DNA from: an uncultured archaeon
GTDB taxonomy: Archaea; Aenigmatarchaeota; Aenigmatarchaeia; QMZP01; QMZT01
Direction of reading: 5' to 3'
Assembly (NCBI GenBank): GCA_964346665.1
Contig: CAYFVC010000026.1
Coordinates: forward strand, 18,197-82,196
DNA: 64,000 nt
Both the position numbers and the translations under genes were made by a program. Within the stretch, counting starts at the first letter, position 1. Each line of letters opens with the position of its first letter. A model generated the notes under the pieces. It worked only from the letters and a program-made list of their open reading frames with translations, was not told the origin of the DNA and searched no databases. This document shows, one piece after another, positions 2,164 to 27,878 of this stretch.

Positions 2164-3858
2164 CTACATCCTCTCCAGAGCCTCTATACCGAGCAGATTA
2201 AGGGCATTTTTCAAAACAATGGAAACAGCCTTGACTAGGGCTAGCCTAGCAGATCTCATTTCTCCCTTCGCCTTCAAAACAGGCAGAAACTGGTAAAACT
2301 CGTTGAATTTGGTCGAAATTTCGTAACAGAAATTCGCGATGTAGTGCGGTCTCATGTCATCCCCCGATTTCCTCACAACATACGGAAACTTCGATATCAT
2401 TTGAAGGAGATGTTTCTCGTGAGGTTCTTTGAGCAGGGACATGTTGAATCTCTTCGGGAATCCCTTTGCCTTTCTAAGAATAGAATTCGCGCGAGCGCAT
2501 GTATATTGTAGGTAAGGGGCGTTGTTTCCTTCGAAAGACAAAGCGTCTTCGACTCTGAAAGCATATGTTTTTTCAGGGGAAACCTTTATCATTGCGTATT
2601 TTAATGCTCCAACGCCAACACTTTCAGCTATTTTCTTTTTCTCTTTCTTCGAGTACTTCGGCATCTTTTCATTAACCGTTTTCATTGCGGTATCAATTGC
2701 TTTTTTGATCAAATCGTCCACGGATACGAATTTTCCTTCTCTCGTGGACATCGATCCCTCAGGTAATTTCAAAAACTCGTAGAAAAGGATTTCGTAATTT
2801 TTCGCCTTCTCGGGCATTATCAACTTTAGGGTGGAAACGATCTGATCGAAATACAGTTTTTGGTCACCACCCATGACGTTTATGTTGAAATCTGATTTCG
2901 ATAGTTTGTAGTTGTGGTAGGCGAGATCCCTGAGCGTGTACATTGAAGTTCCGTCAGACCTTGTCAGGTTGAATTCCCTTTCGATTCCGAATTCCTTGAG
3001 ATCAACCCATACCCTTTTCCCATCTATCTTTGCTTTGCCTGTCTTTTTTACTCTTTCAAGAATTTTCTGAACATCTTTGTTGAAAATATATTTGCTCTCA
3101 GGGGAATAATTATCTACCTTTATTCCGAGTTTATCAAAGGTTTTTTTGTGTCCTTCCAAGCATTTTTTTGTTAAAAAAGTGAAATATTTTCGTAAGGTTT
3201 TGTCTCCTTTCTCGAACCTCTGTATTATCTTCTTTACCTCTTCTTCGAGATTTTCATTTGCTTTCAGCTCTTTGTTTCCTTTTAAATAGAGGTCGAGTAC
3301 CCACCAATCTGGCTTTCCCTTAACTTTTGGTTTTTTCTTAATGTATTCCATAACGGCTATCGCAATCTGCCTTCCTGTATCGTTTACCAGGAAATCTGTT
3401 TTTACCTTGTTTCCCGCGAAGGACAGTATTCTCGCAAGGGAATCTCCAATCACGGTGTTTCTGAAGTGTCCTAAATGCAAAGGGCCGTCTGGGTTTGCTG
3501 AGGTGTGTTCCACAAGAATTCTAATCCCTTTCTTTCCTGACCCGTATTTTTTTCCCTCTTTCAGAACCTGCCCAACAACCTTCTGCCCGATCTTGTCCCA
3601 ATTCGCAGAGAAATTAAGATACCCTCCCTTTGGCTCGACCTTTGCAATCATACCGGAGGGTTTGATTTTCGAAGAGAAGTCTTTCGCTATCACGTCTGGG
3701 GGTTTTCTTAGTTTTTTCGAGACTATGAAGCAGGGGAAGGCGAGGTCCCCGAATTCGGGCTGGGGAGGTTTTTCGAGGATTATATCTTCTTTTTTGATCT
3801 TCGACTCTTTAGCTATCTTCTTCTTTACTTCATCTTTGAATTCCTCAAAAAGGTTCAT
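2164..3858 (-). CDS. argS: Arginyl-tRNA synthetase
   Basis: 564 aa with a class I HLGH motif and C-terminal anticodon-binding domain sequence typical of ArgRS (..QYTCARANSILRKA..). Confidence 0.9.
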   Translation of the reverse strand: MNLFEEFKDEVKKKIAKESKIKKEDIILEKPPQPEFGDLAFPCFIVSKKLRKPPDVIAKDFSSKIKPSGMIAKVEPKGGYLNFSANWDKIGQKVVGQVLKEGKKYGSGKKGIRILVEHTSANPDGPLHLGHFRNTVIGDSLARILSFAGNKVKTDFLVNDTGRQIAIAVMEYIKKKPKVKGKPDWWVLDLYLKGNKELKANENLEEEVKKIIQRFEKGDKTLRKYFTFLTKKCLEGHKKTFDKLGIKVDNYSPESKYIFNKDVQKILERVKKTGKAKIDGKRVWVDLKEFGIEREFNLTRSDGTSMYTLRDLAYHNYKLSKSDFNINVMGGDQKLYFDQIVSTLKLIMPEKAKNYEILFYEFLKLPEGSMSTREGKFVSVDDLIKKAIDTAMKTVNEKMPKYSKKEKKKIAESVGVGALKYAMIKVSPEKTYAFRVEDALSFEGNNAPYLQYTCARANSILRKAKGFPKRFNMSLLKEPHEKHLLQMISKFPYVVRKSGDDMRPHYIANFCYEISTKFNEFYQFLPVLKAKGEMRSARLALVKAVSIVLKNALNLLGIEALERM

Positions 3859-15225: not shown

Positions 15226-17004
15226 ATGGGGAAAAAGAGGATAGTGGTCCATGACAAGGAGTTATGTAGGTATGACAGCTGTGGGTACAAGTGCGTGAAA
15301 ATCTGTCCGATCAACAGGTCTGGGGAGGAGTGTGTAGTGGAAGGCGAGGATAGGTATCCAATATTCAACGAGGAGTTGTGTATAGGATGTGGTATATGCT
15401 CGAAAGCGTGCGAGAAACTCGGCTTCAACGCGATATCTGTTGTGAATCTTCCTAAAGAACTGGAGGAAGACCCCATACACAGATATGGAAAAAACCAATT
15501 CGCCCTCTACAAGCTTCCCATTCCAAAGAAAAATGTCGTGAATGGTCTGATCGGCCCGAACGGGGTGGGGAAGACAACCGTTCTAAACATTCTCTCTGGG
15601 AACATAAAACCGAATATTGGTTTGTTCAGGAAAAAGGTCCCTTGGGATTTCATAATAGATAAGTTCAAGGGAACAGAACTGCAGGAATATCTCGAAATGC
15701 TTTCAGGGAAAGGATTCGAAATAGGGTACAAACCACAGCATGTTGATCTCATCCCGAACATGTGGAAGGGGAAGGTGAAAGATTTGCTCAGTAAATACAG
15801 AGGTTATGAAAAGGTTGTCGAAAGATTAGGGATGAATGAAATGCTGGAAAAGGGTGTGAAAACCTTATCGGGGGGCGAACTCCAATTACTTGCGATAGCC
15901 GCTGTTTTGTCGAAAGAGCATGACTTTTACTTCTTCGATGAGCCTTCTAGCTACCTTGATGTGAAACAACGATTGCTAGTTGCAAAGGAAATCCGTAAGC
16001 TTTCCGAAAACAAGGAGGTTATGGTGGTTGAGCACGATCTTGCGATACTGGATTACCTGAGCGATCATGTTCACATACTCTACGGAAAGCCGGGGACGTT
16101 CGGGGTTGTTTCAAACCCTTATGGCGTGAGGGTCGGGATAAACACGTATCTGGAAGGTTACATAAAGGAGGAAAATGTCCGTTTCAGAGACAAGCCCATT
16201 TTCTTCTCGAAAAGTGCTCGTGTCCCTGGAAAGGATCAACTGCTTCTCGAGTTCTCGGGATTTGAGAAATCCTTCGAGGATTTTTTTCTTAAAACGGAAC
16301 CGGGTGAAATTCACAAGGGAGAGGTTATAGGGATATTGGGGGCGAACAGTATTGGAAAAACCACGTTCATACGTATGTTGGTGGGCGAATTGAAACCGAA
16401 TAAAGGGGAGTTCGTGAAGATGAGGTTATCCTATAAACCACAGAGACTGGTCTTGGAAAAGGAGGAGAAGAAGCTTGAAGTTAAAGAGTACATAAAAATA
16501 AATGTGGGAAAGAGACTCCAAAACACAGAATTCAAAAGGATACTCTCATCACTCGGGATTGAAAGGAACCTTGAAAAAAAGATGAAAACCCTCTCCGGAG
16601 GGGAATTGCAGGCTGTGTTCATTGCGTGTTCGCTTGGGAAAGAACACGATATTCTCCTTCTCGATGAGCCTTCTGCTTTCCTGGATGTGGAACAAAGGCT
16701 TAAGATCTCGAAAATAATAAGGAATCACGTCGAAAGTAACGAAATCTCCGCTTTCGTGGTGGACCACGATCTTCAGGTTATAGATTCGATAGCGGACAGG
16801 ATAATGGTGTTCGAGGGTGAAGGAGGGAAGGAAGGTCTAGGGAGGAAGCCCTGCGAAATAAAGGACGGGATGAACAATTTCTTACGAAAACTCGAAATCA
16901 CTTTTCGGAGGGATCCGCAGACGGGGAGGGCAAGGGCGAATAAGCCTGATTCCCAGAAGGACAGGGAACAGAAAGAAATGGGGGAATATTATTATTCTGG
17001 TTGA
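15226..17004 (+). CDS. abcE1: ABCE1 / RNase L inhibitor (ribosome recycling factor) with N-terminal 4Fe-4S domains and twin ABC cassettes
   Basis: N-terminal C..C..C...CP and CIGCGICSKAC ferredoxin motifs; two Walker A sites (GPNGVGKTT, GANSIGKTT) and two LSGGE signatures. Confidence 0.9.
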   Translation: MGKKRIVVHDKELCRYDSCGYKCVKICPINRSGEECVVEGEDRYPIFNEELCIGCGICSKACEKLGFNAISVVNLPKELEEDPIHRYGKNQFALYKLPIPKKNVVNGLIGPNGVGKTTVLNILSGNIKPNIGLFRKKVPWDFIIDKFKGTELQEYLEMLSGKGFEIGYKPQHVDLIPNMWKGKVKDLLSKYRGYEKVVERLGMNEMLEKGVKTLSGGELQLLAIAAVLSKEHDFYFFDEPSSYLDVKQRLLVAKEIRKLSENKEVMVVEHDLAILDYLSDHVHILYGKPGTFGVVSNPYGVRVGINTYLEGYIKEENVRFRDKPIFFSKSARVPGKDQLLLEFSGFEKSFEDFFLKTEPGEIHKGEVIGILGANSIGKTTFIRMLVGELKPNKGEFVKMRLSYKPQRLVLEKEEKKLEVKEYIKINVGKRLQNTEFKRILSSLGIERNLEKKMKTLSGGELQAVFIACSLGKEHDILLLDEPSAFLDVEQRLKISKIIRNHVESNEISAFVVDHDLQVIDSIADRIMVFEGEGGKEGLGRKPCEIKDGMNNFLRKLEITFRRDPQTGRARANKPDSQKDREQKEMGEYYYSG

Positions 17005-17918
17005 TGTACGACTTTAGCGGAAACGACCTTGTACATCGCAAAAAGCAATAAAACTGTTCCCAACCACTGACCTGGCAAGAGAGTTTCCCCGTAAATAAGG
17101 AATTCTCCTATTATCACTGTAGCGGGCATTGCGAGCTCATAGATAGTTGACTTCGAGGCCGGAACTCTTTTAAGACCGTAGTAATATATGAATATCGCAA
17201 CCCCTCCGGTTGTGAAAGCGATAAGTAGTAGGGTTAAAAGATTTATCTGCGTTACGTCTGCGAAGTATGATAACTTATTCATGGAAATGACTACTATGAA
17301 CATTATGAGTGTTGTCATACCAAATCTGAGGTATGTTCCCACCCTGAAGTTGACTTTCTCTATTGCGCGCTTGCTGAAAACGGTTGAAGAACCCCATGCG
17401 AAGGCTGCCAGCAGAGAGAGCATGGCAGCAATAAATGTTGCATTCGCGGGGTCGGGCGGTGAAAATCCAAAAGTAAGGAAGTAGCTTCCGATTATTGCAA
17501 CAGCAGCCCATAAAAAGAAATTCTTTCTTGGTCTTTCCCTCAGAACTATAGCTGCGACTGTTATTGCGAATAAAGGCTGGAGTTTTTGCAGGAGGATTAC
17601 GACTGAAAGTTTTACGAATTGGACCATAAAAAGAGCGGAGGTTATCGCCATAGTTCCTATCGCCCCTCCGAACAAGCCGACCCAGAAGAATGCTCCCCAG
17701 TCCCTTAGATTGAGTTTCTTAAGCTCCTTTCTCTCGTAAACCAGAAGGGTTGACATGTAAGCAAAAGCGATGGCATGCTCAAGGAAAACAACGACAGCAA
17801 CGTCCAGATGGTAGAGAGAGGGACGAAGTAGAACGCCGTCAATCCCCCACAACATGGCAGCGAAGGCTATCGCTAACGCTCCTAATACAGGGATAGAGAT
17901 TGATTTCCTGTCTAACAT
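16992..17918 (-). CDS. EamA/DMT-superfamily transporter (about 10 TM)
   Basis: Two internally repeated 5-TM halves rich in G/A/L with short loops; start chosen at MLDRKSISIPVLGALAIAF to avoid overlap with ribK. Confidence 0.65.
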   Translation of the reverse strand: MLDRKSISIPVLGALAIAFAAMLWGIDGVLLRPSLYHLDVAVVVFLEHAIAFAYMSTLLVYERKELKKLNLRDWGAFFWVGLFGGAIGTMAITSALFMVQFVKLSVVILLQKLQPLFAITVAAIVLRERPRKNFFLWAAVAIIGSYFLTFGFSPPDPANATFIAAMLSLLAAFAWGSSTVFSKRAIEKVNFRVGTYLRFGMTTLIMFIVVISMNKLSYFADVTQINLLTLLLIAFTTGGVAIFIYYYGLKRVPASKSTIYELAMPATVIIGEFLIYGETLLPGQWLGTVLLLFAMYKVVSAKVVHQPE

Positions 17919-17922
17919 CCTG

Positions 17923-18579
17923 TCACGCCCTAAGCTCCACGTGCACGTAATCGCCGTCTTTGAGGGAAAGCTCTTTTCTAATGTTGACTGGTGAGATGAT
18001 TTCGATAACATCAGAAGGGTGATGTGTTCTTTCAGGGATCACCACCACTCCTCTTATCTTCCTGTTCACAACACAAGGGTAGCATTTTATGTCTCCGAAC
18101 GTCCTCTTTTCTTTCTTGAATCCTTCCACAACGATTGGTTTTACCTTCTCCATTTCGTTTTTCGCATTTATGTCGTGGGTTGATTTCAGCCTGATGTTCA
18201 AGGTCCCCAAGAAAGGACGTAAACCCAGTTTGTCGTGAAACTGCAGGAAATACTCATCCTGCCCTACGTAATACCCCCCTTCACCAGAGCCGGATATAAG
18301 GTTCCCCCCAAAGGAAATACCTTCATCTTTCGAGCGTTCAATTAATTCTCTCAATTCAAGGTATCTTTTTCTTAGGAATTTCGTTCCGTTTTCGGTTAGG
18401 TTTATGATCTGGCCCTTTGGGTGTGTGGTCCTGCTTATCATACCAAGGTTTTCGAGTTCCCTGATCTTCCTAGAAACGGTCTGCTGGGAAGAATCAAGTT
18501 TCTTCGCGAGAATGCTCGTGGTGACCTTTCCCTTCTTCTTGGAAAGTTCAATTAGAACATCAAGAATCTCTGCCTTCAT
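17923..18579 (-). CDS. ribK: CTP-dependent riboflavin kinase (archaeal RibK) fused to an N-terminal winged-HTH domain
   Basis: N-terminal wHTH (..TSILAKKLDSSQQTVSRKIRELENLGMISR..), then the archaeal RFK core (..GSGEGGYYV...FLGTLNIRL...GVVVIPERTHH..). Confidence 0.7.
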   Translation of the reverse strand: MKAEILDVLIELSKKKGKVTTSILAKKLDSSQQTVSRKIRELENLGMISRTTHPKGQIINLTENGTKFLRKRYLELRELIERSKDEGISFGGNLISGSGEGGYYVGQDEYFLQFHDKLGLRPFLGTLNIRLKSTHDINAKNEMEKVKPIVVEGFKKEKRTFGDIKCYPCVVNRKIRGVVVIPERTHHPSDVIEIISPVNIRKELSLKDGDYVHVELRA

Positions 18580-18641: not shown

Positions 18642-19139
18642 TCACTCAACTTCCAATGAGCCCATGCTGTATATCTCCTTTATCACGGCTATGAACCTTT
18701 CAGCCATTTGTTTACAACGTTCTACCATGCTTTGCCGTACGGTGTTGTAAAACAAATGCCAGTACACCCACCACATGAACATTACAAAGCGATTACCTTC
18801 GAATTCGTGCCTCACGGTTGGCTCGACTTCTAGTCTGAAAGTCCCTTCGTTTTTCGCTTTTGCCTTGAAACCGACCATGCGGACCGAAAGTATTATTTTC
18901 GCGAATCTTCCTGATGTCTTATCGTGCATGGCCATCCTGTGGTAATACATCTGTATGGGATCGCCAGTCCAGTCCCACATCCATCTCGGCTCGCCAGTAC
19001 TCGTTGTGGTGACCTCCCAGACCGAACGAAGGATAGCGGTCGCCTCTCTTGTCCAGGCAAGCGGGTCAGGTCCTGAATAATTTATCCACCTGCTCCTTCT
19101 AGGAGCGAAACAGTCGTCATCTATCTGAAACTTCCCCAT
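18642..19139 (-). CDS. Hypothetical protein, paralogue A of a tandem pair
   Basis: Co-linear motifs shared with the adjacent ORF: I.DDCF.PRR.RWINYSGPDP here versus IQEDCYRERPERVTINYVGPSP; a W/Y-rich middle; a helical C-terminus containing Cys. Confidence 0.5.
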   Translation of the reverse strand: MGKFQIDDDCFAPRRSRWINYSGPDPLAWTREATAILRSVWEVTTTSTGEPRWMWDWTGDPIQMYYHRMAMHDKTSGRFAKIILSVRMVGFKAKAKNEGTFRLEVEPTVRHEFEGNRFVMFMWWVYWHLFYNTVRQSMVERCKQMAERFIAVIKEIYSMGSLEVE

Positions 19140-19154
19140 TTTTCCACCTTAGAA

Positions 19155-19673
19155 CTACCCGCTCTCTTCTCTGAGCTGCCTCAAGAATTCATGGATATTT
19201 CTGGTGAATATTGAAACCATGTTCCTACAGTCTTCTGTGTATTCCTCCCTTTTCCTGTAGTAAAATGACCTGTGCCAAAAAACCCTTAGCATTTCATAGA
19301 ATAGGGATCGCTGCCATACGGTGTCTTGTGGGTATTCTGTTCTCATAACCGGCTTTATATTGATCTCAGCCTTCCCTGATTTCTCATCCCCGTAACCGGA
19401 AACATCAACCCTTATGTAGAGATACGTATAAACATCCATGTCTTTATGTAGATACCAACGAACCTTGAACTTCTCTTTTTCGCCTTTACCCCAGCTTAGC
19501 TTCTCCTCTTGGATATCTGAATCGGCCGCCCTGAATATCGCTTTTATCAGTTCATATACTTTGTAATAGAGCTTCGTCGGACTAGGTCCTACATAATTTA
19601 TGGTTACCCTCTCTGGTCTCTCCCTGTAACAATCCTCCTGTATGAGCATTTTAGTTCGGGCGAACTGCGGCAT
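19155..19673 (-). CDS. Hypothetical protein, paralogue B of a tandem pair
   Basis: See paralogue A; same strand, 15-nt spacer, 172 aa. Confidence 0.5.
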   Translation of the reverse strand: MPQFARTKMLIQEDCYRERPERVTINYVGPSPTKLYYKVYELIKAIFRAADSDIQEEKLSWGKGEKEKFKVRWYLHKDMDVYTYLYIRVDVSGYGDEKSGKAEINIKPVMRTEYPQDTVWQRSLFYEMLRVFWHRSFYYRKREEYTEDCRNMVSIFTRNIHEFLRQLREESG

Positions 19674-19736
19674 GCGAATCTCCTCTTTATATTTATATTT
19701 TCATTGCGAAATTATAAATTAGTATCTTAAGCACAA

Positions 19737-19949
19737 ATGGTGTTTTATATGCTTTGGTGGCTGGTTTTCAAAATACTGGGCGTCATAATGATATTCATCG
19801 GGGGTTTTCTAGTCATATTCTTCCCAGGGATAATACACCATCAGGAGACAGGGTCAAAAAGAGCTCCACAAACCAGTTTTGGTCTGGGTGGAATCGTCGT
19901 TGGATTGATACTGATAATAGTTGGTGGTTTCATTTTATTCAGTCCGTAA
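19737..19949 (+). CDS. Small two-TM membrane protein
   Basis: 70 aa with two hydrophobic helices separated by a charged loop; the alternative-frame ORF 19754..19954 is less protein-like. Confidence 0.35.
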   Translation: MVFYMLWWLVFKILGVIMIFIGGFLVIFFPGIIHHQETGSKRAPQTSFGLGGIVVGLILIIVGGFILFSP

Positions 19950-19998
19950 AATAAACCAAGGAAAAGGTATTTTTATCTTTTGGTCTCAATAATTAAAT

Positions 19999-21714
19999 AT
20001 GGCAGAAGTAGAAAAACCACTAGAAAGGTTTGAGGAGGAGGACAAGGAGAGGGAAAAGGAGGAAAAGGCTAGGGAGAAGTATGAAAGGAAAAAGGCTAAA
20101 TGGGAAGAAATACTCAAACCTTTTGATACGGTCATAGACTACTTCTTGGATCAGGCAAGGAATAAAGGGGGTATTTATGGAGAAGTTGTCATCAGCCCTG
20201 CTTTGCTAGACCAGATCGTAACCTTGAACCCTGTAACCCTTGAAGGACAGGCTGAGATAATCTACAACATCTTTATTTATAGAGTTGCGAAGTGGCATTA
20301 CAACGTTGAGAAAGCGGACGAGTATATAAAATTAACGCCGACCGCACCTCCTGCATTCGCCCCGCTGCTTTCGCAGAAGGAAAGGCTGGAAGGTTATATA
20401 AAGTCGGGTTTGGCTTCCGCAGCCCAGGCCGTCGCTGATTACGAACTTCTGAAGCACGACGAAAGGAAGTACAGGGAAATCCTGGATTATTTCAACATGG
20501 GCAAAAAGGACGAACACGTACTGAGGGCGTTATACGTGGACAGGGTTGATGCTTACACAGGTGAAGGATATTCGATGGTAACGATGGCGAAGCGCTGGCC
20601 AACAATAATTTCGGATTTCATAAAGATGAGGAGTGGATGGATGGATGTGGATACAATAAGGAAGAAATTGAAGGTTTCAAAGGCAGAGGCCGTCGTTTTG
20701 AAAACGAAGAATGAATTGTTCGTGGAATGGAAAAGGTTATTCTTCCCAGACGTAAGAGATCGCTACGTGAGGATAAAAAACCTCCTCGAATCCAGGAGGA
20801 GATCGATTCATGAATACAGGGAGTGGTTAAAACCTCATTTGAACAGGCTGAAGAGGATAAGGGAGCAGGCGGAAATAGCGGACGCTGCATCTGATCTCAC
20901 GGAGATCACAAAACTCATGTTCACCCCTCAGGGAGAGGTTGAAGCGAAACTCTGGTTCTGGAAGCCTATCAAACCGGAGGAGGTTGGAAAACCTGTGATG
21001 GTTTCCGGGTGGGGGGAGATTCCCTTATTCGATGACTGGGTGAAGGAGAAAATAATACTCCTGGAGGCAAAGTACGGCGTTGAACTTTCTGAAAATGAGA
21101 TAAAGAATTGTGTGAAAGGGCATAAATTGGGCGGGAAGCTTTACGGTAAACGCAGGGAAATCCTTGCTGTTCATCCGGGTCCTTACATAGATGAGAGATT
21201 CATTTATTATTTTTTCATAGACCTCGATTACGTATGTCAATACAAAAAGGGTTCAACAGGACCCATGGTAATCGAGGACCAGTACTGGCATTTCCACCCT
21301 TTCCTGGTTTCAAAGAACTTCCTGCTTTTGTCACTGCTGGAACTGGAGTACAAGAAAAAAAAGCTTAGGGAGGAGATAGAGAGATTGATAGGCGTCACAA
21401 CAGAGGAGGAGAAGATAGGGGAGGAGGTCAGAAGGAAATGGCCAAGGGAAGGTGAGAAGGAGAGAAAGGAGAGATCAAGAGAAAGGTGGAAGGAGTCTTT
21501 GAGTAAAACAAAGGCGAGCTGGATTAGAAGGAGGAGGAAGCTGAAAAATGTACTGAATCCTTTATTCAAATTTTTCATAAGGGCTGGCCCTTACGAGATC
21601 AATGTTGCTGAAAGGATCTCGAAAACTTATGGTTTATATTTCGGTGGCCAGGTCGCTGAACTCAGGGATCTTATAAAGGAGACTTCTTACAGGATAAGCG
21701 GGCAAAGGCCGTAG
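19999..21714 (+). CDS. Large hypothetical protein (571 aa) with K/E-rich coiled-coil-like N- and C-terminal segments
   Basis: Long ORF with good codon usage, charged coiled-coil-like N-terminus (EEDKEREKEEKAREKYERKKAKWEE) and a basic/acidic C-terminal segment; no family recognised. Confidence 0.5.
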   Translation: MAEVEKPLERFEEEDKEREKEEKAREKYERKKAKWEEILKPFDTVIDYFLDQARNKGGIYGEVVISPALLDQIVTLNPVTLEGQAEIIYNIFIYRVAKWHYNVEKADEYIKLTPTAPPAFAPLLSQKERLEGYIKSGLASAAQAVADYELLKHDERKYREILDYFNMGKKDEHVLRALYVDRVDAYTGEGYSMVTMAKRWPTIISDFIKMRSGWMDVDTIRKKLKVSKAEAVVLKTKNELFVEWKRLFFPDVRDRYVRIKNLLESRRRSIHEYREWLKPHLNRLKRIREQAEIADAASDLTEITKLMFTPQGEVEAKLWFWKPIKPEEVGKPVMVSGWGEIPLFDDWVKEKIILLEAKYGVELSENEIKNCVKGHKLGGKLYGKRREILAVHPGPYIDERFIYYFFIDLDYVCQYKKGSTGPMVIEDQYWHFHPFLVSKNFLLLSLLELEYKKKKLREEIERLIGVTTEEEKIGEEVRRKWPREGEKERKERSRERWKESLSKTKASWIRRRRKLKNVLNPLFKFFIRAGPYEINVAERISKTYGLYFGGQVAELRDLIKETSYRISGQRP

Positions 21715-21782
21715 ATCGGATGTTGCATACATAGTATGCAACGCAGGAAGTCATGTTTACACGTGTTGTAAGGTCGTTATAT

Positions 21783-23579
21783 ATGATAAAGGTTGGAATT
21801 ACAACCGGTTTGTATTACATTGCAAGGGCGGAGGAGCTGGCGACGTCCCTTAAGAAAATAGGTTACGGTCTGACGAGGGGGACGGATGCTATCGAAATCT
21901 CAGGGGATACGCCGCACGAAATCGATTACACCATCGGGAAGGAGATACGCCACCTAGCTGAAAAGCAGGGACTGGATCTGTGTTTCCATGGTTCTTTGAC
22001 AATCCCCATGGGTATTCCCGAGCGTTCTGACTGGAGGGACGGACAAGACCACATAGAAAAATCAATACGCTCCGCCGTCTTCTCCGGGTGCAAATACGTT
22101 TTGTTCCATGCGTGCCTGCACTTCTGGCTCGAGATGATAACGTACACATCGCAGAAGCTCGAAATCATCATGTGCGATCATGATGGGGATTTTGTTTCAG
22201 AGGTTTTCTACAATAATGAAAAACTCAGAGAATGGTTTCTGTGGAAAATGTGGGATTATGAGAGACCCTATCCACAGCAGATAGTGGACGAAGATGACTA
22301 TCAGGATGCCAACGGTAAGGCGCAAACAGAAAGGGAGATTATGTGGAGGAAATTGAAAGAGGAAAAGTGGAAAAAATATTTAATCTCAAAGGGCTATATT
22401 GATGAAAAGGGGAATCAAATAAAGCAGATGCCCCCGGATGTTAAGGAAAGAATAGAAGGAGAGATAGACAGGGAAGTATCAGAAGAGAGTGGGTTGTTTT
22501 TCTCAAAAAAAGTCAGGGAATACATGACGAAGTACGCAAGAAAGAAGATGCTACAGAAGGAGTATCCAAAAAGAAGGTGGAGGGTTGATTGCTACGGAAA
22601 ACTTACGGATGCTTACGAAATCATGGCGCATTACATGTTCTACAACAAAGACCCAATATGGGTTGCGATGTCAGAAGTTTACAAGGATGTGACCGCCCCA
22701 TACAAAATGGACTACAGTGATGATCGGTGGCTTGACAAAGCATATACAAGGGCACAGGAAACGAATGACAGGGAATTCAAAAGGTTTTATTATGCAGTTG
22801 TTGCGGCGAAATTCTTGGAAGGGCATATGAAATCGGCTTTGAAATTTATAAACGGTAAGTTGATAAAAGAACTGAAACAATATCCTGATTCTGACAAACT
22901 CATAGAGAATGCGAAGAACCTGAAAATAACGATCGAGATGCCCGATGCAAGGGATCCTAAATACGCTGGATTGTATTTGCTTTGGCATCCTAAACAGATA
23001 TACGCTGCAATAAAAACCATTCGAAATACTTTGAAAACAAATCGTATTTTTATGACTATCGATTGGGAACACATAGCAGGACAGGGTATTGACCCGCTGG
23101 TGGAGATAGATAATTTGGAGAAAATCGCTCCTGACTTTGGAAGATACGTTCTTTCCGTTCATTCCAACACCCCGAACCCTTTGCATGCACATTATCCGAT
23201 TGAACTCGGTGATATGGAGATATACAGGCTTAATTGGTTCTTGAGGAAAACGGGTTTTGGGAAACAGCCCGAATATAATGTTTACCTCTGGTTTGAAAGG
23301 GGTGGAGGGGACGATCCTTTCAGGCAGGCTGTTGATGCTTTAAAATTATGCGCGAAATTCCTTGAGCAGGATGTCCCTCCGGATGAACTGCCCAATGAGT
23401 ATTTCGGGATAAAGCATACAGGTATGGATTTTTGGAGGCAGGAACAGATAATGAGGGATCATAGATTCGAACCCTTAAAGGATTTGCTAGAGATACCTGA
23501 AGAGGAATGGGGTATGCTTTCGACTGCAGCCACTAAAAAGGGGAAAACCAAGGAGTTCAAGAAAGAGGAGATGAAATAA
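21783..23579 (+). CDS. Xylose-isomerase-like (AP-endonuclease-2 fold) TIM-barrel protein with an inserted domain of about 330 aa
   Basis: N-terminal barrel strands (MIKVGITTG..., ..DAIEISGDTPHEI.., ..LDLCFHGS.., ..KYVLFHAC..) and C-terminal strands (..ITIEMPDARDP.., ..FMTIDWEHIAGQG.., ..LSVHSNTP..LHAHYPIELGD.., ..LWFERGGGDDP..), separated by a long charged/aromatic insert. Confidence 0.5.
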   Translation: MIKVGITTGLYYIARAEELATSLKKIGYGLTRGTDAIEISGDTPHEIDYTIGKEIRHLAEKQGLDLCFHGSLTIPMGIPERSDWRDGQDHIEKSIRSAVFSGCKYVLFHACLHFWLEMITYTSQKLEIIMCDHDGDFVSEVFYNNEKLREWFLWKMWDYERPYPQQIVDEDDYQDANGKAQTEREIMWRKLKEEKWKKYLISKGYIDEKGNQIKQMPPDVKERIEGEIDREVSEESGLFFSKKVREYMTKYARKKMLQKEYPKRRWRVDCYGKLTDAYEIMAHYMFYNKDPIWVAMSEVYKDVTAPYKMDYSDDRWLDKAYTRAQETNDREFKRFYYAVVAAKFLEGHMKSALKFINGKLIKELKQYPDSDKLIENAKNLKITIEMPDARDPKYAGLYLLWHPKQIYAAIKTIRNTLKTNRIFMTIDWEHIAGQGIDPLVEIDNLEKIAPDFGRYVLSVHSNTPNPLHAHYPIELGDMEIYRLNWFLRKTGFGKQPEYNVYLWFERGGGDDPFRQAVDALKLCAKFLEQDVPPDELPNEYFGIKHTGMDFWRQEQIMRDHRFEPLKDLLEIPEEEWGMLSTAATKKGKTKEFKKEEMK

Positions 23580-23615: not shown

Positions 23616-24410
23616 TTACTCCGCCCAAGCAATGTTGAAGAATGGTTCCACAAAGCTTCTTATTGCATGTTGTGATTGCGCCCAGAATGCAACGTCCTGT
23701 GTTTGATGAACTTTCTTGTCGTCAGTTAGGGCGAAAAGCATGTGCTTGTCATCGACTGTGTAAACCCTGTTCAAGGGTTTCTTGACGTTTTTCATGTCTG
23801 CTATCTCTGAAAACGCCTTTACAGGGCTCGTGTCGCTTAAGGGAGCGAGTATTCTAAGTTTCACGCCCCTCTTTGTGATCCTCTTGAGCGAATTGTAGTG
23901 GTTTGAGTAGAGTTCGTTCAAACCCCCTTCAGTTGTTATTATACGTATTTCCTTTGCTGCCTTCTTGAAAAGCGAGTTCAAATGCTGGTTTATCGAATGC
24001 CTTCCTTTCAAAGTTCCTGTCATCTCGAACGGTTGAACTAAGTTCAGCCCTTCCTTGTATATCGCTTCAAGTTCTGCCATAACGGGCGAGTTTTTCATGG
24101 AGTCTATCCTTTCTATCATTTCATCGTGCTTTTTCTTAAGATTTTCCTTTGTCCTCTCCATCGCGTCTTTGGGTGCGAGCGCAACGTATCTTATCGGTTT
24201 TGATGGTTGTACGACCACGAATCCTTTCTCTGCGAGGGATTCCAAAATATCATATGATCTGGATCTCGGAACGTTCGCTATCTGAGAAAGTTCGCCCGCT
24301 GTTGCTACGCCTCTTGCTAGCAAAGCCACAAATATCTTCCTTTCATACAGGTTTAAACCGATGCTCTTCAACGCATCCAACGTCTTTGTTGTTGCTACCA
24401 TTTTTTTCAC
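23616..24410 (-). CDS. trmB: TrmB-family transcriptional regulator
   Basis: N-terminal wHTH (..LYERKIFVALLARGVATAGELSQIANVPRSRSYDILESLAEKGFV..) plus a C-terminal effector-like domain, 264 aa. Confidence 0.7.
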   Translation of the reverse strand: MKKMVATTKTLDALKSIGLNLYERKIFVALLARGVATAGELSQIANVPRSRSYDILESLAEKGFVVVQPSKPIRYVALAPKDAMERTKENLKKKHDEMIERIDSMKNSPVMAELEAIYKEGLNLVQPFEMTGTLKGRHSINQHLNSLFKKAAKEIRIITTEGGLNELYSNHYNSLKRITKRGVKLRILAPLSDTSPVKAFSEIADMKNVKKPLNRVYTVDDKHMLFALTDDKKVHQTQDVAFWAQSQHAIRSFVEPFFNIAWAE

Positions 24411-26684: not shown

Positions 26685-27878
26685 ATGAGGGGTCAGTTTT
26701 ATTCTGCCATAGCGATCGCAATCACCATACCCATTGTTTTATTCATCTCCTATTATGTCATGTCCCATGGAGGGGAGACCGGGATATACGAGAATATCGT
26801 TGCGGATCAGATACACCAAGTTGAAAGGAGCGTTGAAAAAGATTTCGGAAAAGCAATGGTAACGTCGGGGAAGCGAGCGTTAATAGCAGGAGATGATTAC
26901 GTTGTGATGAACGGGGAACCGATTAGTGATGCAATTTCCGGAATCAAAGAACTCATGGAAAACGGGACGGTAGAAGGGAATGAGAGCCTGCTAATGGTCA
27001 ACAACACCCTAATCAACTGGACGAATAAGATTCTTGATGTTCCTGTGAATTTTTATGTTAACATAAGTTTCGCAAATCTCGAAATTTCGAACTACAATTC
27101 ATTCAACATACACGCATCCGCCGATCTTAACGTTTCGGTTGCGGATGAGTTGGGGATCGCGAGAATTGATAAAAGGGATATGCATTACGAAACGTTGGTA
27201 CCTGTTAAGGGGGCGGAAGACCCCATATTCACCCTGAAAACAAACGGTGTTCTCACAAGAAGCATAAAGATTTCGCCATATCCGTACAGAGCTAAAAAAC
27301 TCGTGGAAGGCGGGGCGAATTCTTCTGGGAACTGTTCGGGTGAGGTAACATTCAACAAATCAGAATGCGATTCGAAAATATTGGTTGCTGAGAATATAAC
27401 AGGAGTGAGTTTCGGGTGTTTTTCGGGGTTCGTCATAGAGGATTCCGTTGATCTTAGCGGGAGTTCGGATTGCTATGTAACGGGGAACGGAAGCGCGATT
27501 GAGATAATAAGCCAGGCAATTTCAGAAACGAATTATGAAAAAGTCTATATCGACAGTGATACGAAATCTGTTTGGCACCTGCCCATACGGGAGGAAATCG
27601 ATAGTAAATATTATTTCCCCGGGAACGGGCCGAACTTCCTGAAAAGGTTGGAAGGCGATCTGAATTCCTCCTCCGATGGGATGGAAACATTCGTGAACCT
27701 CCCCGAATTCCAGAGCTATCAATTACCGATAAAGGAGGATGTGATTTCGCTTGCCTATATATATTTCAGAGACCAAGACTATATTGGGTATCCAGTAAGG
27801 GGCTTGCAAAGCTGGTTTAGGACAAACCAAACGTTTGCGGACAAATACGGTTTAACGGAATTGTGTGATGGATGTTGA
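26685..27878 (+). CDS. Large pilin-like protein with class III (type IV prepilin-like) signal peptide
   Basis: MRGQFYSAIAIAITIPIVLF: a K/R-G-Q then hydrophobic stretch typical of archaeal prepilin signals. The remainder is rich in N-x-S/T sequons and beta-like. Confidence 0.55.
   Translation: MRGQFYSAIAIAITIPIVLFISYYVMSHGGETGIYENIVADQIHQVERSVEKDFGKAMVTSGKRALIAGDDYVVMNGEPISDAISGIKELMENGTVEGNESLLMVNNTLINWTNKILDVPVNFYVNISFANLEISNYNSFNIHASADLNVSVADELGIARIDKRDMHYETLVPVKGAEDPIFTLKTNGVLTRSIKISPYPYRAKKLVEGGANSSGNCSGEVTFNKSECDSKILVAENITGVSFGCFSGFVIEDSVDLSGSSDCYVTGNGSAIEIISQAISETNYEKVYIDSDTKSVWHLPIREEIDSKYYFPGNGPNFLKRLEGDLNSSSDGMETFVNLPEFQSYQLPIKEDVISLAYIYFRDQDYIGYPVRGLQSWFRTNQTFADKYGLTELCDGC

Follow-up and report, generated by a model that had tools for sequence, protein, structure and literature searches.

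A conserved five-gene module of Aenigmatarchaeota that probably encodes a membrane-tethered metallo-phosphoesterase around a split endonuclease-IV-like barrel

Endonuclease IV (Endo IV) is a compact barrel of ~280-300 aa with open DNA-recognition loops, and its constellation of metal ligands is also found in oxidative multinuclear iron enzymes. In CpEndoIV the ligand pattern is H75, H115, E153, D187, H190, H224, D237, H239 and E269 (PMC13113976), and for M. jannaschii the homologue predicted is MJ1311 (PMC2770678). Most members of the AP_endonuc_2 (PF01261) superfamily are sugar isomerase/epimerase-type enzymes, and one, CbiR, is a cobamide-remodelling phosphodiesterase whose substrate is a cofactor instead of nucleic acid (PMC7733943). 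Here we compare these proteins with the product of gene C, the last of five clustered genes (A1, A2, M, B and C; Table 1) in a 64-kb stretch of DNA, hereafter the window.

The five are genuine genes on an Aenigmatarchaeota (DPANN) chromosome. An earlier note on this DNA had delimited five open reading frames and could name a family for none of them; all five lie where it placed them and have numerous homologues (219-295 for each of B, C and A2), and its second statement holds for every protein except C, as the other four matched no named family in Pfam, NCBIfam, PADLOC, PHROG or PDB. An Rfam search likewise returned no match. The longest frame for C starts at 21753 and encodes 608 aa; homologues begin at the second Met, which gives the start used here. 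A1, A2 and B are all basic (pI ~9).

Table 1. Coordinates of the five genes, their intergenic regions and the segments of C within the window.
Feature	Position	Strand	Description
A1	18642-19139	-	165 aa; more diverged paralogue, soluble, basic; from ORF list
A2	19155-19673	-	172 aa; highly conserved paralogue; from ORF list
A2/M divergent intergenic region	19674-19736	.	63 bp; two back-to-back conserved TATA-like boxes
M	19737-19949	+	70 aa; two transmembrane helices; first gene of plus-strand unit
B	19999-21714	+	571 aa; soluble, basic, coiled-coil hairpin
B-C spacer with palindrome	21715-21782	+	recent lineage-specific insertion, outside conserved module
C	21783-23579	+	598 aa; start at second Met, as in homologues
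C N-terminal half-barrel, aa 1-120	21783-22142	+	carries H69, H109; PF01261 match
C insertion, ~255-265 aa	22143-22907	+	between barrel strands 4 and 5; from alignment
C C-terminal half-barrel, aa 376-515	22908-23327	+	E385, D427-x-x-H430, H460, H468-x-H470, E505
C C-terminal extension, aa 516-598, and stop codon	23328-23579	+	conserved; from alignment

By sequence comparison, the C family appears to belong to the PF01261 superfamily, the window protein by itself falling just under the cut-off: its residues 33-110 align with model positions 8-89 at 29.0 bits (cut-off 31.1), a match that covers the N-terminal half only. Of 38 family members, 36 match PF01261 with E<=0.01, the best reaching 3.5e-10. 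The C-terminal half was mapped through distant homologues. The C-like protein of locus L087, which aligns with window C at E=4e-37, matches PF01261 positions 105-247/248 with its own C-terminal half (66.6 bits, E=3.5e-18), and that of L086 scores 55.6 bits, both above the cut-off. The split xylose-isomerase/endonuclease-IV-like TIM barrel first described in the earlier note is thus recovered in both its halves.

The closest solved relative of C is MJ1311 (PDB 3wqo; E=7.6e-6), again reached through the L087 protein, whose alignment pairs FDFEH with FDIGH, vH with vH, GHEH with DDEH and FERGG with SIENK; an HMMER alignment of the AP endonuclease 6khy to a C homologue pairs LETPDA with LETPHN and CFDFEH with CIDTAH. 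Ligand positions were equated through HMMER alignments of the homologue to MJ1311 or 6khy and then of C to the homologue. The nine Endo IV metal-ligand positions fall, in order, on the nine C residues listed in Table 1, from H69 to E505, and each is kept in 78-83 of 83 sequences (H69 in 82, H109 in all). C thus retains, essentially invariant, an H-H-E-DxxH-H-(H/D)xH-E signature at all nine positions that hold three metals in endonuclease IV.

Relative to Endo IV, MJ1311 and Nfo-type enzymes, C has the same barrel and the same order and near-identical spacing of these positions. It differs in that the barrel is split after strand 4 by a conserved insertion of ~265 aa, in an added C-terminal extension of ~85 aa, in twice the usual length, in the Asp of the D-x-H pair, which is His (H468) in C, and in being accompanied by B (exceptions L078 and L083) and usually by A1, A2 and M. 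The NCBIfam deoxyribonuclease IV model was matched by one distant C homologue only (E=0.006, 16 bits against a 244-bit cut-off), and an hhalign comparison with an approximate sequence of E. coli Nfo was not significant (E=0.34). The insertion, present also in C variants of 25% identity, consists of a variable charged linker with a conserved helical block on either side (aa 112-152 and 266-350), and shows borderline PriL-like similarity at aa 133-202. As it sits where strand 4 ends on its C-terminal side, it probably caps the active site, and so large a cap may keep duplex DNA away from the catalytic face. The C-terminal extension has no family match; it carries invariant R552, Q553, H560, D567, E573, E574 and S580 and a basic tail, KKGKxKEFKKEE.

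Among NCBIfam models, the best match of C-like proteins is CbiR (7.7e-7, 28.9 bits), with weak matches in 4 of 38 family members. We rejected CbiR as an identity for C: the score lies far from the 105-bit cut-off, and cobamide genes are not among the recurrent neighbours. CbiR shares the superfamily with C and shows that phosphodiesterases with non-DNA substrates act there in salvage and remodelling; unlike C, it lacks the insertion and has no B, A or M partners.

The arrangement of the five genes is far beyond chance, given the number of homologues of B, C and A2 and the occurrence of all five genes together in 55 of 59 related loci (species genomes with at least 3.4 kb of upstream sequence). 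A1 lies beside A2 in 55 of these 59. C is encoded in 101 species genomes, essentially all of them Aenigmatarchaeota metagenome-assembled genomes, and the module is near-universal in this phylum of tiny symbionts and apparently single-copy. The genes remain adjacent through an inversion (L037 and L053) and at a reshuffled locus whose other neighbours have moved (L089), as do B-like/C-like pairs at 25-28% identity (L086, L087 and L090), and in most loci the B and C genes touch or overlap. The exceptions are two B-C pairs with neither A nor M nearby (L042 and L051) and two solitary C genes (L078 and L083). The earlier note had read the cluster as a single functional module and proposed neighbourhood and profile searches; this phylum-wide adjacency and strong co-occurrence bear that reading out, and the profile searches did not scatter the proteins among unrelated well-known families.

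Mean identity to the window proteins is 65% for ABCE1, 61.5% for A2, 55% for C, 49.5% for B and 42% for A1, so that A2 and C are conserved nearly at the level of ABCE1. The recurrent neighbourhood is one of information processing (ABCE1, Trm1, a TyrRS-type synthetase, DNA ligase, an HhH-GPD glycosylase and topoisomerase), within a housekeeping context that also includes RibK; the adjacency of ABCE1 and Trm1 may reflect slow genome rearrangement instead of function. Taken together, the five genes constitute a module of housekeeping type that is passed on vertically and is restricted to Aenigmatarchaeota and close DPANN relatives; no counterpart of the whole system has been described.

The divergent region between A2 and M holds two TATA-like boxes, ATTTATATTTTC (minus-strand reading, for A2-A1) and AAATTATAAATTAG (for M-B-C), both kept in relatives down to ~56-70% protein identity while the flanking bases vary. 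On the archaeal TATA consensus, both are putative promoters. A divergent promoter at 19674..19998 had been proposed earlier; the divergent region is confirmed, its extent is shorter (Table 1). The palindrome noted in the B-C spacer is real, a perfect 9-bp palindrome at 21722-21742 that is unique within the window, but functional weight for it is not supported: the spacer occurs only here and, duplicated, in L004, B and C abutting or overlapping in all other relatives, and its folding energy is unexceptional (z=-0.44). The gene at 23616-24410 is a TrmB-family regulator (PF01978, E=1e-19) convergent with C, as previously described; its supposed link to the module did not hold up, as it is adjacent in 18 of ~80 loci, all in the window's own subclade. 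A TrmB-regulated operon was set aside on these grounds.

A1 and A2 are paralogues: BLASTP aligns 160 aa of them at 24% identity (E=5e-10). The motif on which their kinship was first proposed, I-x-[DE]-D-C-[FY] ... I-N-Y-x-G-P-[DS]-P, does align. They are never fused in relatives, which argues against split pieces of one gene. A1 (pI 8.9) has no TM segment. Each paralogue carries a Cys pair, C10/C142 in A1 and Cys15/Cys149 in A2, with perfect co-variation within each pair; in A1 both Cys are present in 55 sequences and both lost in 2. Because the A2 pair has been lost in one clade and the A1 pair in two genomes, with the module retained in each, we regard the pairs as structural staples, not as the point of the system.

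A2 models as a beta-sheet with a 48-residue C-terminal helix, a putative helix-grip (START/TBP-like) fold, and A1 would share a helix-grip-like fold through its homology to A2. The best fold matches of the A2 model are Lam2 StART-like, Ups1, Aster, Bet v 1, START and polyketide cyclases, and KA1/TBP-like RNA- or DNA-binding domains are also among them. The likeness to all these proteins is one of predicted fold: START/SRPBCC superfamily models gave no Pfam or NCBIfam match to A1 or A2 at E<=1, PDB gave no sequence match, and A1 is likewise unmatched in PADLOC. Relative to START/helix-grip proteins, the helix of A2 is about twice the usual length, A1 and A2 come as obligately paired paralogues with a Cys staple that co-varies, and the conserved residues of A2 are mainly polar. 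The last include an invariant polar-aromatic run, E113-R142, with mostly polar or charged invariant residues (E113, Q116, D117, R122, E127, R130, H134 and R142), which count weakly against a hydrophobic ligand cavity.

M is the sole membrane protein among the five, its two-TM character, as previously noted, being seen in hydropathy spans at 1-36 and 43-70 (pI 9.7). It matches no family in Pfam or NCBIfam and lies directly upstream of B in ~62 loci (iterative search); it is also present in the reshuffled locus L089 (E=2e-9). B contains a long antiparallel coiled-coil hairpin with arms at 118-170 and 228-286 and an invariant tip (aa 176-207), flanked by alpha/beta parts and followed by a conserved C-terminal GPYE helix. 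The charged, coiled-coil-like termini described earlier correspond to a charged helix at the N-terminus and, close to the C-terminus, a charged stretch that is disordered. B has no fold or family match, Foldseek giving nothing at E<=1e-3. Its hairpin matches those of prefoldin, the HlyD/LipC/EmrA membrane-fusion adaptors, SMC/Rad50 arms and ESCRT-III/PspA, and nothing beyond the hairpin does; unlike these proteins, B lacks an ATPase head, a signal peptide and a TM segment, and its conserved tip loop and alpha/beta parts have no counterpart in them. Neither a family sequence model nor a full-length fold match identifies B as a prefoldin, SMC protein or membrane-fusion adaptor.

A KNTase/MntA-like nucleotidyltransferase of 400-540 aa, with an NTP_transf_2/Polbeta domain and a HEPN-like helical domain, is encoded 3' of C in the same orientation; 28 of 65 loci have it within 1.2 kb, and ~45 have it nearby. 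The order C-nucleotidyltransferase-Trm1 recurs in L086 and L089. By domain it resembles the MntA antitoxin, ANT(4')/KNTase and HalB, all scores being far below the family cut-offs. It was not found within the 64-kb window, so it is not obligatory nearby.

We propose that the module probably encodes a housekeeping, membrane-tethered, multi-protein metallo-phosphoesterase, a function that we infer from the features described above. That a multi-protein complex assembles round an active Endo-IV-type phosphoesterase seems to us reasonably probable, and the "enzyme complex" option of the earlier note is the part of its interpretation that survives, as a prediction from sequence. C would be catalytically active, a phosphoesterase with a multinuclear metal site. 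B would serve it as an obligatory scaffold or partner of coiled-coil type, with the invariant hairpin tip as docking site, and M would anchor B and C at the membrane. The helix-grip-like domains of A1 and A2, each with its Cys pair as a staple, would join in a heterodimer that binds or presents the substrate via the invariant polar-aromatic surface of A2. The nucleotidyltransferase gene just after C in many relatives suggests a two-step sequence, in which C would cut or trim a phosphoester and the nucleotidyltransferase would then nucleotidylate the product. Taken whole, from complex through both steps to a nucleic-acid substrate, the statement is tentative.

The substrate may be nucleic-acid ends or lesions (3'-phosphate, cyclic-phosphate or abasic, in RNA, tRNA or DNA), possibly in imported host nucleic acid. 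This assignment is itself doubtful, and we favour it weakly over scavenged lipids or cofactors. The lean towards nucleic acid draws on the downstream nucleotidyltransferase, the information-processing neighbours, the basic A1, A2 and B and the KA1/TBP-like matches of A2. Against it, operons for nucleic-acid repair do not usually include a membrane protein.

The same parts could instead make a salvage and remodelling machine for lipids or other hydrophobic metabolites, which we judge rather improbable. A1-A2 would then be START/Ups1-like carriers that extract archaeal lipids of host origin, or a cofactor, while M and B would hold the complex at the membrane, C would strip a phospho-linked head group in phospholipase C/D- or CbiR-like fashion, and the nucleotidyltransferase would re-activate the product. 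The membrane location of M agrees with this, as do the lipids or hydrophobic ligands bound by the best fold matches of A2, the small-molecule phosphodiesterase CbiR as best NCBIfam match and a cap that would fit small substrates; yet the invariant residues of A2 are not those of a greasy pocket, START/SRPBCC sequence models are unmatched, and lipid-metabolism genes are not among the recurrent neighbours. To our knowledge, no AP_endonuc_2 superfamily member acts on lipids. Aenigmarchaeota are without the mevalonate pathway, and hosts are thought to be the source of their lipids (PMC8407114), which counts for a lipid substrate, but every DPANN archaeon needs lipids and the module is found in one phylum only.

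It is more improbable still that C serves ordinary carbohydrate metabolism, as a sugar or sugar-phosphate isomerase, epimerase or dehydratase whose neighbours are unrelated and kept by the slow rearrangement of small genomes. Such enzymes prevail in PF01261, JGI labels many homologues "sugar phosphate isomerase/epimerase", D-tagatose 3-epimerase and hydroxypyruvate isomerase are weakly matched, and ABCE1, surely without functional link, is also a frequent neighbour. However, C holds all nine Endo IV positions, and the sugar isomerases of the superfamily that we know of work with one or two metals and do not have the additional His ligands. Among the recurrent neighbours there are no sugar kinases, transporters or other carbohydrate genes, the adjacency outlasts inversion and reshuffling, and abutting or overlapping B and C genes are typical of translationally coupled subunits.

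A stress or anti-virus defence system under the adjacent TrmB-family regulator, as the earlier note had also suggested, is very unlikely. The convergent TrmB gene, the PIN/MazE and MNT-HEPN pairs beside B-C in L090, and the combination of a nuclease-like enzyme with an MNT-like nucleotidyltransferase (weak matches including MntA and HalB) recall toxin-antitoxin and defence parts; but none of the five proteins has a PADLOC or PHROG match, IMG/VR viral contigs hold no relatives, and TrmB is adjacent in one subclade only. A near-universal, apparently single-copy module of near-ABCE1 conservation in a fixed housekeeping context is just what defence systems, patchy, fast-evolving and mobile, are not. 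Equally remote is an oxidative multinuclear-iron enzyme (MbnB/DUF692-like) that modifies the Cys pairs of A1 and A2: the ligands of C are compatible with the di- or tri-iron site of MbnB-type enzymes, each paralogue has its strictly co-varying pair, Cys131 of C is conserved in 67 of 83 sequences and one distant C-like protein bears a fused glutaredoxin-like domain, but that domain lacks a CxxC motif, Pfam-A scans of C and its family gave PF01261 and no DUF692 or related model, some lineages lost the pairs and kept the module, and MbnB-type enzymes need O2 whereas these archaea are mostly anaerobes.

Finally, the module may be the salvage apparatus so far missing from Aenigmatarchaeota, phylum-defining, membrane-tethered and without counterpart elsewhere, a reading that we offer as an unlikely one. 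Phosphodiester-linked building blocks from the host, whether nucleic acids or archaeal phospholipids and cofactors, would be held on A1-A2 and cut by the capped C on its B scaffold, the product being re-activated by the nucleotidyltransferase in most lineages. If so, B would represent a new fold, and A1 and A2 a new branch of helix-grip proteins.

The five open reading frames that the earlier note had placed in a tight cluster are all present exactly as described (see table). A1 and A2, both soluble, are true paralogues that share 24% identity over 160 aa (E=5e-10), the N-terminal motif pointed out in the earlier note aligns in both, and M, with two hydrophobic spans, is the sole membrane protein among the five. 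A1, A2 and B have a pI of ~9 and C, the TIM-barrel protein, one of 6.2. The module lies downstream of ABCE1 and a wHTH-riboflavin kinase, and a TrmB-family regulator and an ATP-dependent DNA ligase follow in convergent orientation to C. No credible match to A1, A2, M or B was obtained in Pfam, NCBIfam, PADLOC or PHROGs; PDB sequence searches with single proteins and profiles gave no match for A1, A2, B or window C; and Rfam revealed no RNA genes in the region. Matches of B to mS35 (E about 0.004) look like charged-helix noise and were discarded.

Coordinates of the module genes, associated elements and neighboring features in the window and in related loci
Feature	Sequence	Positions	Strand	Description
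339-aa ORF	window	16992-18011	-	multi-transmembrane
A1	window	18642-19139	-	165 aa
A2	window	19155-19673	-	172 aa
A2-M intergenic region	window	19674-19736		63 bp
M	window	19737-19949	+	70 aa
B	window	19999-21714	+	571 aa
B-C spacer	window	21715-21782		
Spacer hairpin	window	21722-21742		9-bp perfect hairpin
Spacer tail	window	21750-21776		27 nt, GTCATGTTTACACGTGTTGTAAGGTCG
C	window	ORF from 21753; start at second Met 21783 as in homologues	+	598 aa
First conserved block of C insertion	window	about 22179-22388		aa 133-202
397-aa ORF	window	26685-27878	+	begins MRGQFYSAIAIAITIPIVLF
Spacer unit	L004	about 2869-3000		two diverged tandem copies
Nucleotidyltransferase	L001	11543-12754	same as C	
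Nucleotidyltransferase	L086	11181-12593	same as C	
Nucleotidyltransferase	L087	11070-12431	same as C	
Nucleotidyltransferase	L089	772-2406	same as C	
Second PF01261 protein	L001	13953-14825	-	~290 aa
C-like protein	L086	9263-11116		N-terminal glutaredoxin-like domain

Two flanking genes deserve mention. The 339-aa multi-transmembrane ORF runs 13 nt into the 3' end of ABCE1 and ~90 nt into the 5' end of the riboflavin kinase ORF, and the true starts of these overlapping frames are probably further in; in L011, L012 and L016-L019 both this gene and RibK are missing and A1 is directly abutted by ABCE1. The 397-aa ORF, kept beside the ligase in 14 relatives, begins with what resembles a class-III (pilin-type) signal peptide of archaea.

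Homologues of B (295), C (219) and A2 (224), all "hypothetical" or generically named, come nearly all from Aenigmatarchaeota (DPANN) MAGs as labelled by their submitters. In a scan that took a single genome for each GTDB species, C occurred in 101 genomes; 80 loci were fetched, and the ORFs called in them were searched with the window proteins by phmmer and jackhmmer. The paralogue pair, B and the split barrel, suspected in the earlier note of forming one module, do co-occur: the recurring order is A1(-) A2(-) M(+) B(+) C(+), and among the 59 loci that extend 3.4 kb or more upstream of C, 55 also have two A genes, M and B. Of the four exceptions, L042 and L051 have B-C but neither A nor M, and L078 and L083 have only C. 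Two loci are inverted, B(-) M(-) A2(+) A1(+) C(+), with the five genes and the divergent arrangement retained. In most loci B abuts or overlaps C, and the same holds for A1 and A2, gene starts in the relatives being those of the longest ORFs.

The association extends to distant variants. A profile search of 1.84 billion cluster representatives recovered 240 B relatives, including "short B-like" proteins of 386-500 aa that match the N-terminal domain and hairpin only, and such genes lie directly upstream of a C-like PF01261 protein in L086, L087 and L090. For B the distant variants share only 28% identity with the window protein (E=6e-21), and for C 25% over the full length (E=4e-37). In the reshuffled L089 ("DPANN group archaeon"), C-like and a nucleotidyltransferase are on the other strand, beyond the A pair, and two A-like genes, an M-like gene, B and C-like are still all within 7 kb. 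Adjacency kept through inversion, reshuffling and strong divergence is strong evidence for functional coupling.

In the 17 loci where full-length ABCE1 is encoded too, identity to the proteins of the window averaged 65% for ABCE1, 61.5% for A2, 55% for C, 49.5% for B and 42% for A1, so that A2 and C are nearly as constrained as ABCE1, among the most conserved of archaeal proteins. No relatives of the module proteins were found on IMG/VR viral contigs, and a viral or mobile origin was rejected. Together with the fixed housekeeping context and the lack of PADLOC matches, this result points to a core function passed on by vertical descent and away from a defence or accessory island.

The recognizable subunit is C. 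The window protein matches PF01261 (AP_endonuc_2, the xylose-isomerase-like TIM barrel) with 29.0 bits against a cut-off of 31.1 and over its N-terminal ~80 residues only (residues 33-110 on model positions 8-89); PF01261 is matched by 36 of 38 C family members, and the C-terminal parts of distant homologues cover positions 105-248 (L087: E=3.5e-18, 66.6 bits). Matches to both model halves indicate that C is one barrel with its halves roughly 265 residues apart, which bears out the split barrel of the earlier note. The L087 homologue also matches MJ1311 in the PDB (3wqo, E=7.6e-6), which the literature lists for M. jannaschii as its predicted Endo IV homologue (PMC2770678), and the alignment pairs FDFEH/FDIGH, vH/vH, GHEH/DDEH and FERGG/SIENK. 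A weak match of the same homologue to the AP endonuclease 6khy pairs LETPDA/LETPHN and CFDFEH/CIDTAH. The nine metal ligands of Chlamydophila Endo IV are H75, H115, E153, D187, H190, H224, D237, H239 and E269 (PMC13113976); their equivalents in C are, in the same order, H69, H109, E385, D427, H430, H460, H468, H470 and E505. Spacings approximate those of Endo IV except for a 276-residue gap between the second and third positions, and the nine positions are conserved in 78-83 of 83 sequences, distant variants included. The insertion follows strand 4 on the catalytic face and holds strongly conserved blocks at aa 112-152 and 266-350. We infer that C would be an active multinuclear-metal phosphoesterase and its insertion a cap defining the substrate. 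An hhalign comparison of the C family with an approximate E. coli Nfo sequence was not significant. The top NCBIfam match of C-like proteins is the CbiR phosphodiesterase (7.7e-7, far under its cut-off), and CbiR illustrates that the AP_endonuc_2 superfamily also has phosphodiesterases for non-DNA substrates (PMC7733943). Relative to the Endo IV superfamily, the split barrel, large putative cap and obligate partners of C constitute a new architecture.

Several observations surround C and its relatives. A second PF01261 protein of ~290 aa lies 2-6 kb downstream of C in L001 and 16 other loci. It aligns weakly to Endo IV (again the approximate Nfo sequence), has seemingly lost some ligand positions, such as the H216 equivalent, and looks like a degenerate Endo-IV-like protein; hhalign between the C family and this neighbor was not significant, and it did not serve as a useful bridge. 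In the C insertion, the first conserved block (DHxGxFISEIL...LRxWF) has a borderline likeness to the N-terminal helical domain of the primase large subunit PriL (PDB profile E=0.02; one of 38 family members matches NCBIfam PriL at E=7e-4) that is not significant after multiple testing. Finally, in L086, from a complete 875-kb Aenigmatarchaeota genome (CP066684.1), three multi-transmembrane proteins precede the B-like gene instead of A1, A2 and M. The glutaredoxin-like domain fused to its C-like protein was dropped as a redox clue, as the CxxC motif of the active site is missing.

A1 and A2, a new pair of helix-grip-like paralogues, each carry a pair of Cys residues, the first following strand 1 and the second within the C-terminal helix. 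Among 57-58 orthologues, the A2 positions are Cys/Cys in 46 and both non-Cys in 11, and the A1 positions are Cys/Cys in 55, Val/Leu in two and gapped at the second position in one. Because the residues are kept or lost together, the two Cys of each pair should touch, as a disulfide or a shared metal site, which supports the modelled packing of helix on sheet. A2 has lost the pair in a single clade and A1 in two genomes, so that the losses amount to few evolutionary events. A2 carries an invariant polar-aromatic run, E113-Y-P-Q-D-T-x-W-Q-R122, then Y126, E127, R130, H134, Y138 and R142, that resembles a surface for binding or catalysis more than a hydrophobic pocket. A1 may be the "silent" half of a heterodimer, matching its much lower conservation. 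The model of B (pLDDT 74.8, pTM 0.68) begins with a charged N-terminal helix and a small alpha/beta domain, continues into a hairpin of two 53-59-residue helices with the family's most conserved residues at its tip (aa 176-207), and ends with further alpha/beta elements (a long beta-hairpin among them), a charged, disordered segment and a conserved C-terminal GPYE helix. As modelled, B is likely a new fold. A few SRPBCC proteins were among its weak Foldseek matches; B was tested for this reason as a third A1/A2 paralogue and the idea was rejected, the hhalign score between the A and B families (E=0.044, probability 1%) falling short of significance.

In many relatives, a nucleotidyltransferase of 400-540 aa (NTP_transf_2/Polbeta) lies 3' of C; 28 of 65 loci have it within 1.2 kb of C, and about 45 have it nearby. 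It combines weak KNTase/MntA/ANT/HalB likeness with a HEPN-like helical domain and, in L087, a C2H2 zinc finger; a PDB search with it returned nothing informative. Trm1 is often the next gene, and the order C-nucleotidyltransferase-Trm1 recurs in the distant L086, L087 and L089. The 64-kb window holds no homologue. The nucleotidyltransferase probably belongs to the module.

We propose, with fair but far from full confidence, that the module would act as a membrane-associated multi-protein phosphoesterase, based on the conserved catalytic site, the tight coupling of B and C, the membrane protein and the paralogue pair. For the substrate of this proposed activity we lean weakly toward nucleic-acid ends or lesions, as would suit the Endo-IV-type site, nucleotidyltransferase partner, information-processing neighbors, basic partner proteins and KA1/TBP-like fold matches of A2. 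Salvage of lipids or cofactors is the chief alternative; it draws on the START-like fold matches of A2, the membrane protein M, the CbiR-like similarity of C and the lipid auxotrophy of the phylum (PMC8407114). An ordinary sugar isomerase and an MbnB-like oxidase are both less likely. Likewise less likely is a TrmB-controlled defence system: the earlier note had tied the regulator to the module, and TrmB follows C in 18 loci, all in the window's own subclade, to which the ligase after C (16 loci) is also confined.

The palindromic spacer between B and C does not hold up as a regulatory element of the module: this small inserted unit occurs once in the window and in tandem in the closest relative, L004, and is absent from all other relatives, in which B and C abut. 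The palindrome has no second copy in the window and folds no more stably than shuffled versions of it, and the spacer may represent a miniature intergenic element that moves or duplicates. The A2-M intergenic region contains two back-to-back TATA-like boxes, ATTTATATTTTC and AAATTATAAATTAG, that are almost invariant in the window and the equivalents in L004-L019 at protein identities of only 56-70%. Such conservation is unusually strong for intergenic DNA and is consistent with a putative bidirectional archaeal promoter.

Aenigmatarchaeota are uncultured, genome-reduced symbionts unable to make their own lipids, nucleotides or amino acids (PMC8407114), and a survey of DPANN protein families delineated an Aenigmarchaeota-specific set without any function prediction (PMC8204110), which plausibly includes the families of this module. 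Literature searches found no description of the cluster. While the catalytic subunit C alone is an architectural variant of a known superfamily, the whole system is without a described counterpart, its composition being shared by no described system. The catalogue gains an Endo IV superfamily architecture, a likely fold in B and the helix-grip-like pair. Overall, the module is a sharply bounded and nearly universal piece of the phylum's functional dark matter, comprised of five, often six, genes; with one subunit recognizable and assayable as catalytic, it offers an experimental handle on a function that selection has treated as core to the lineage.
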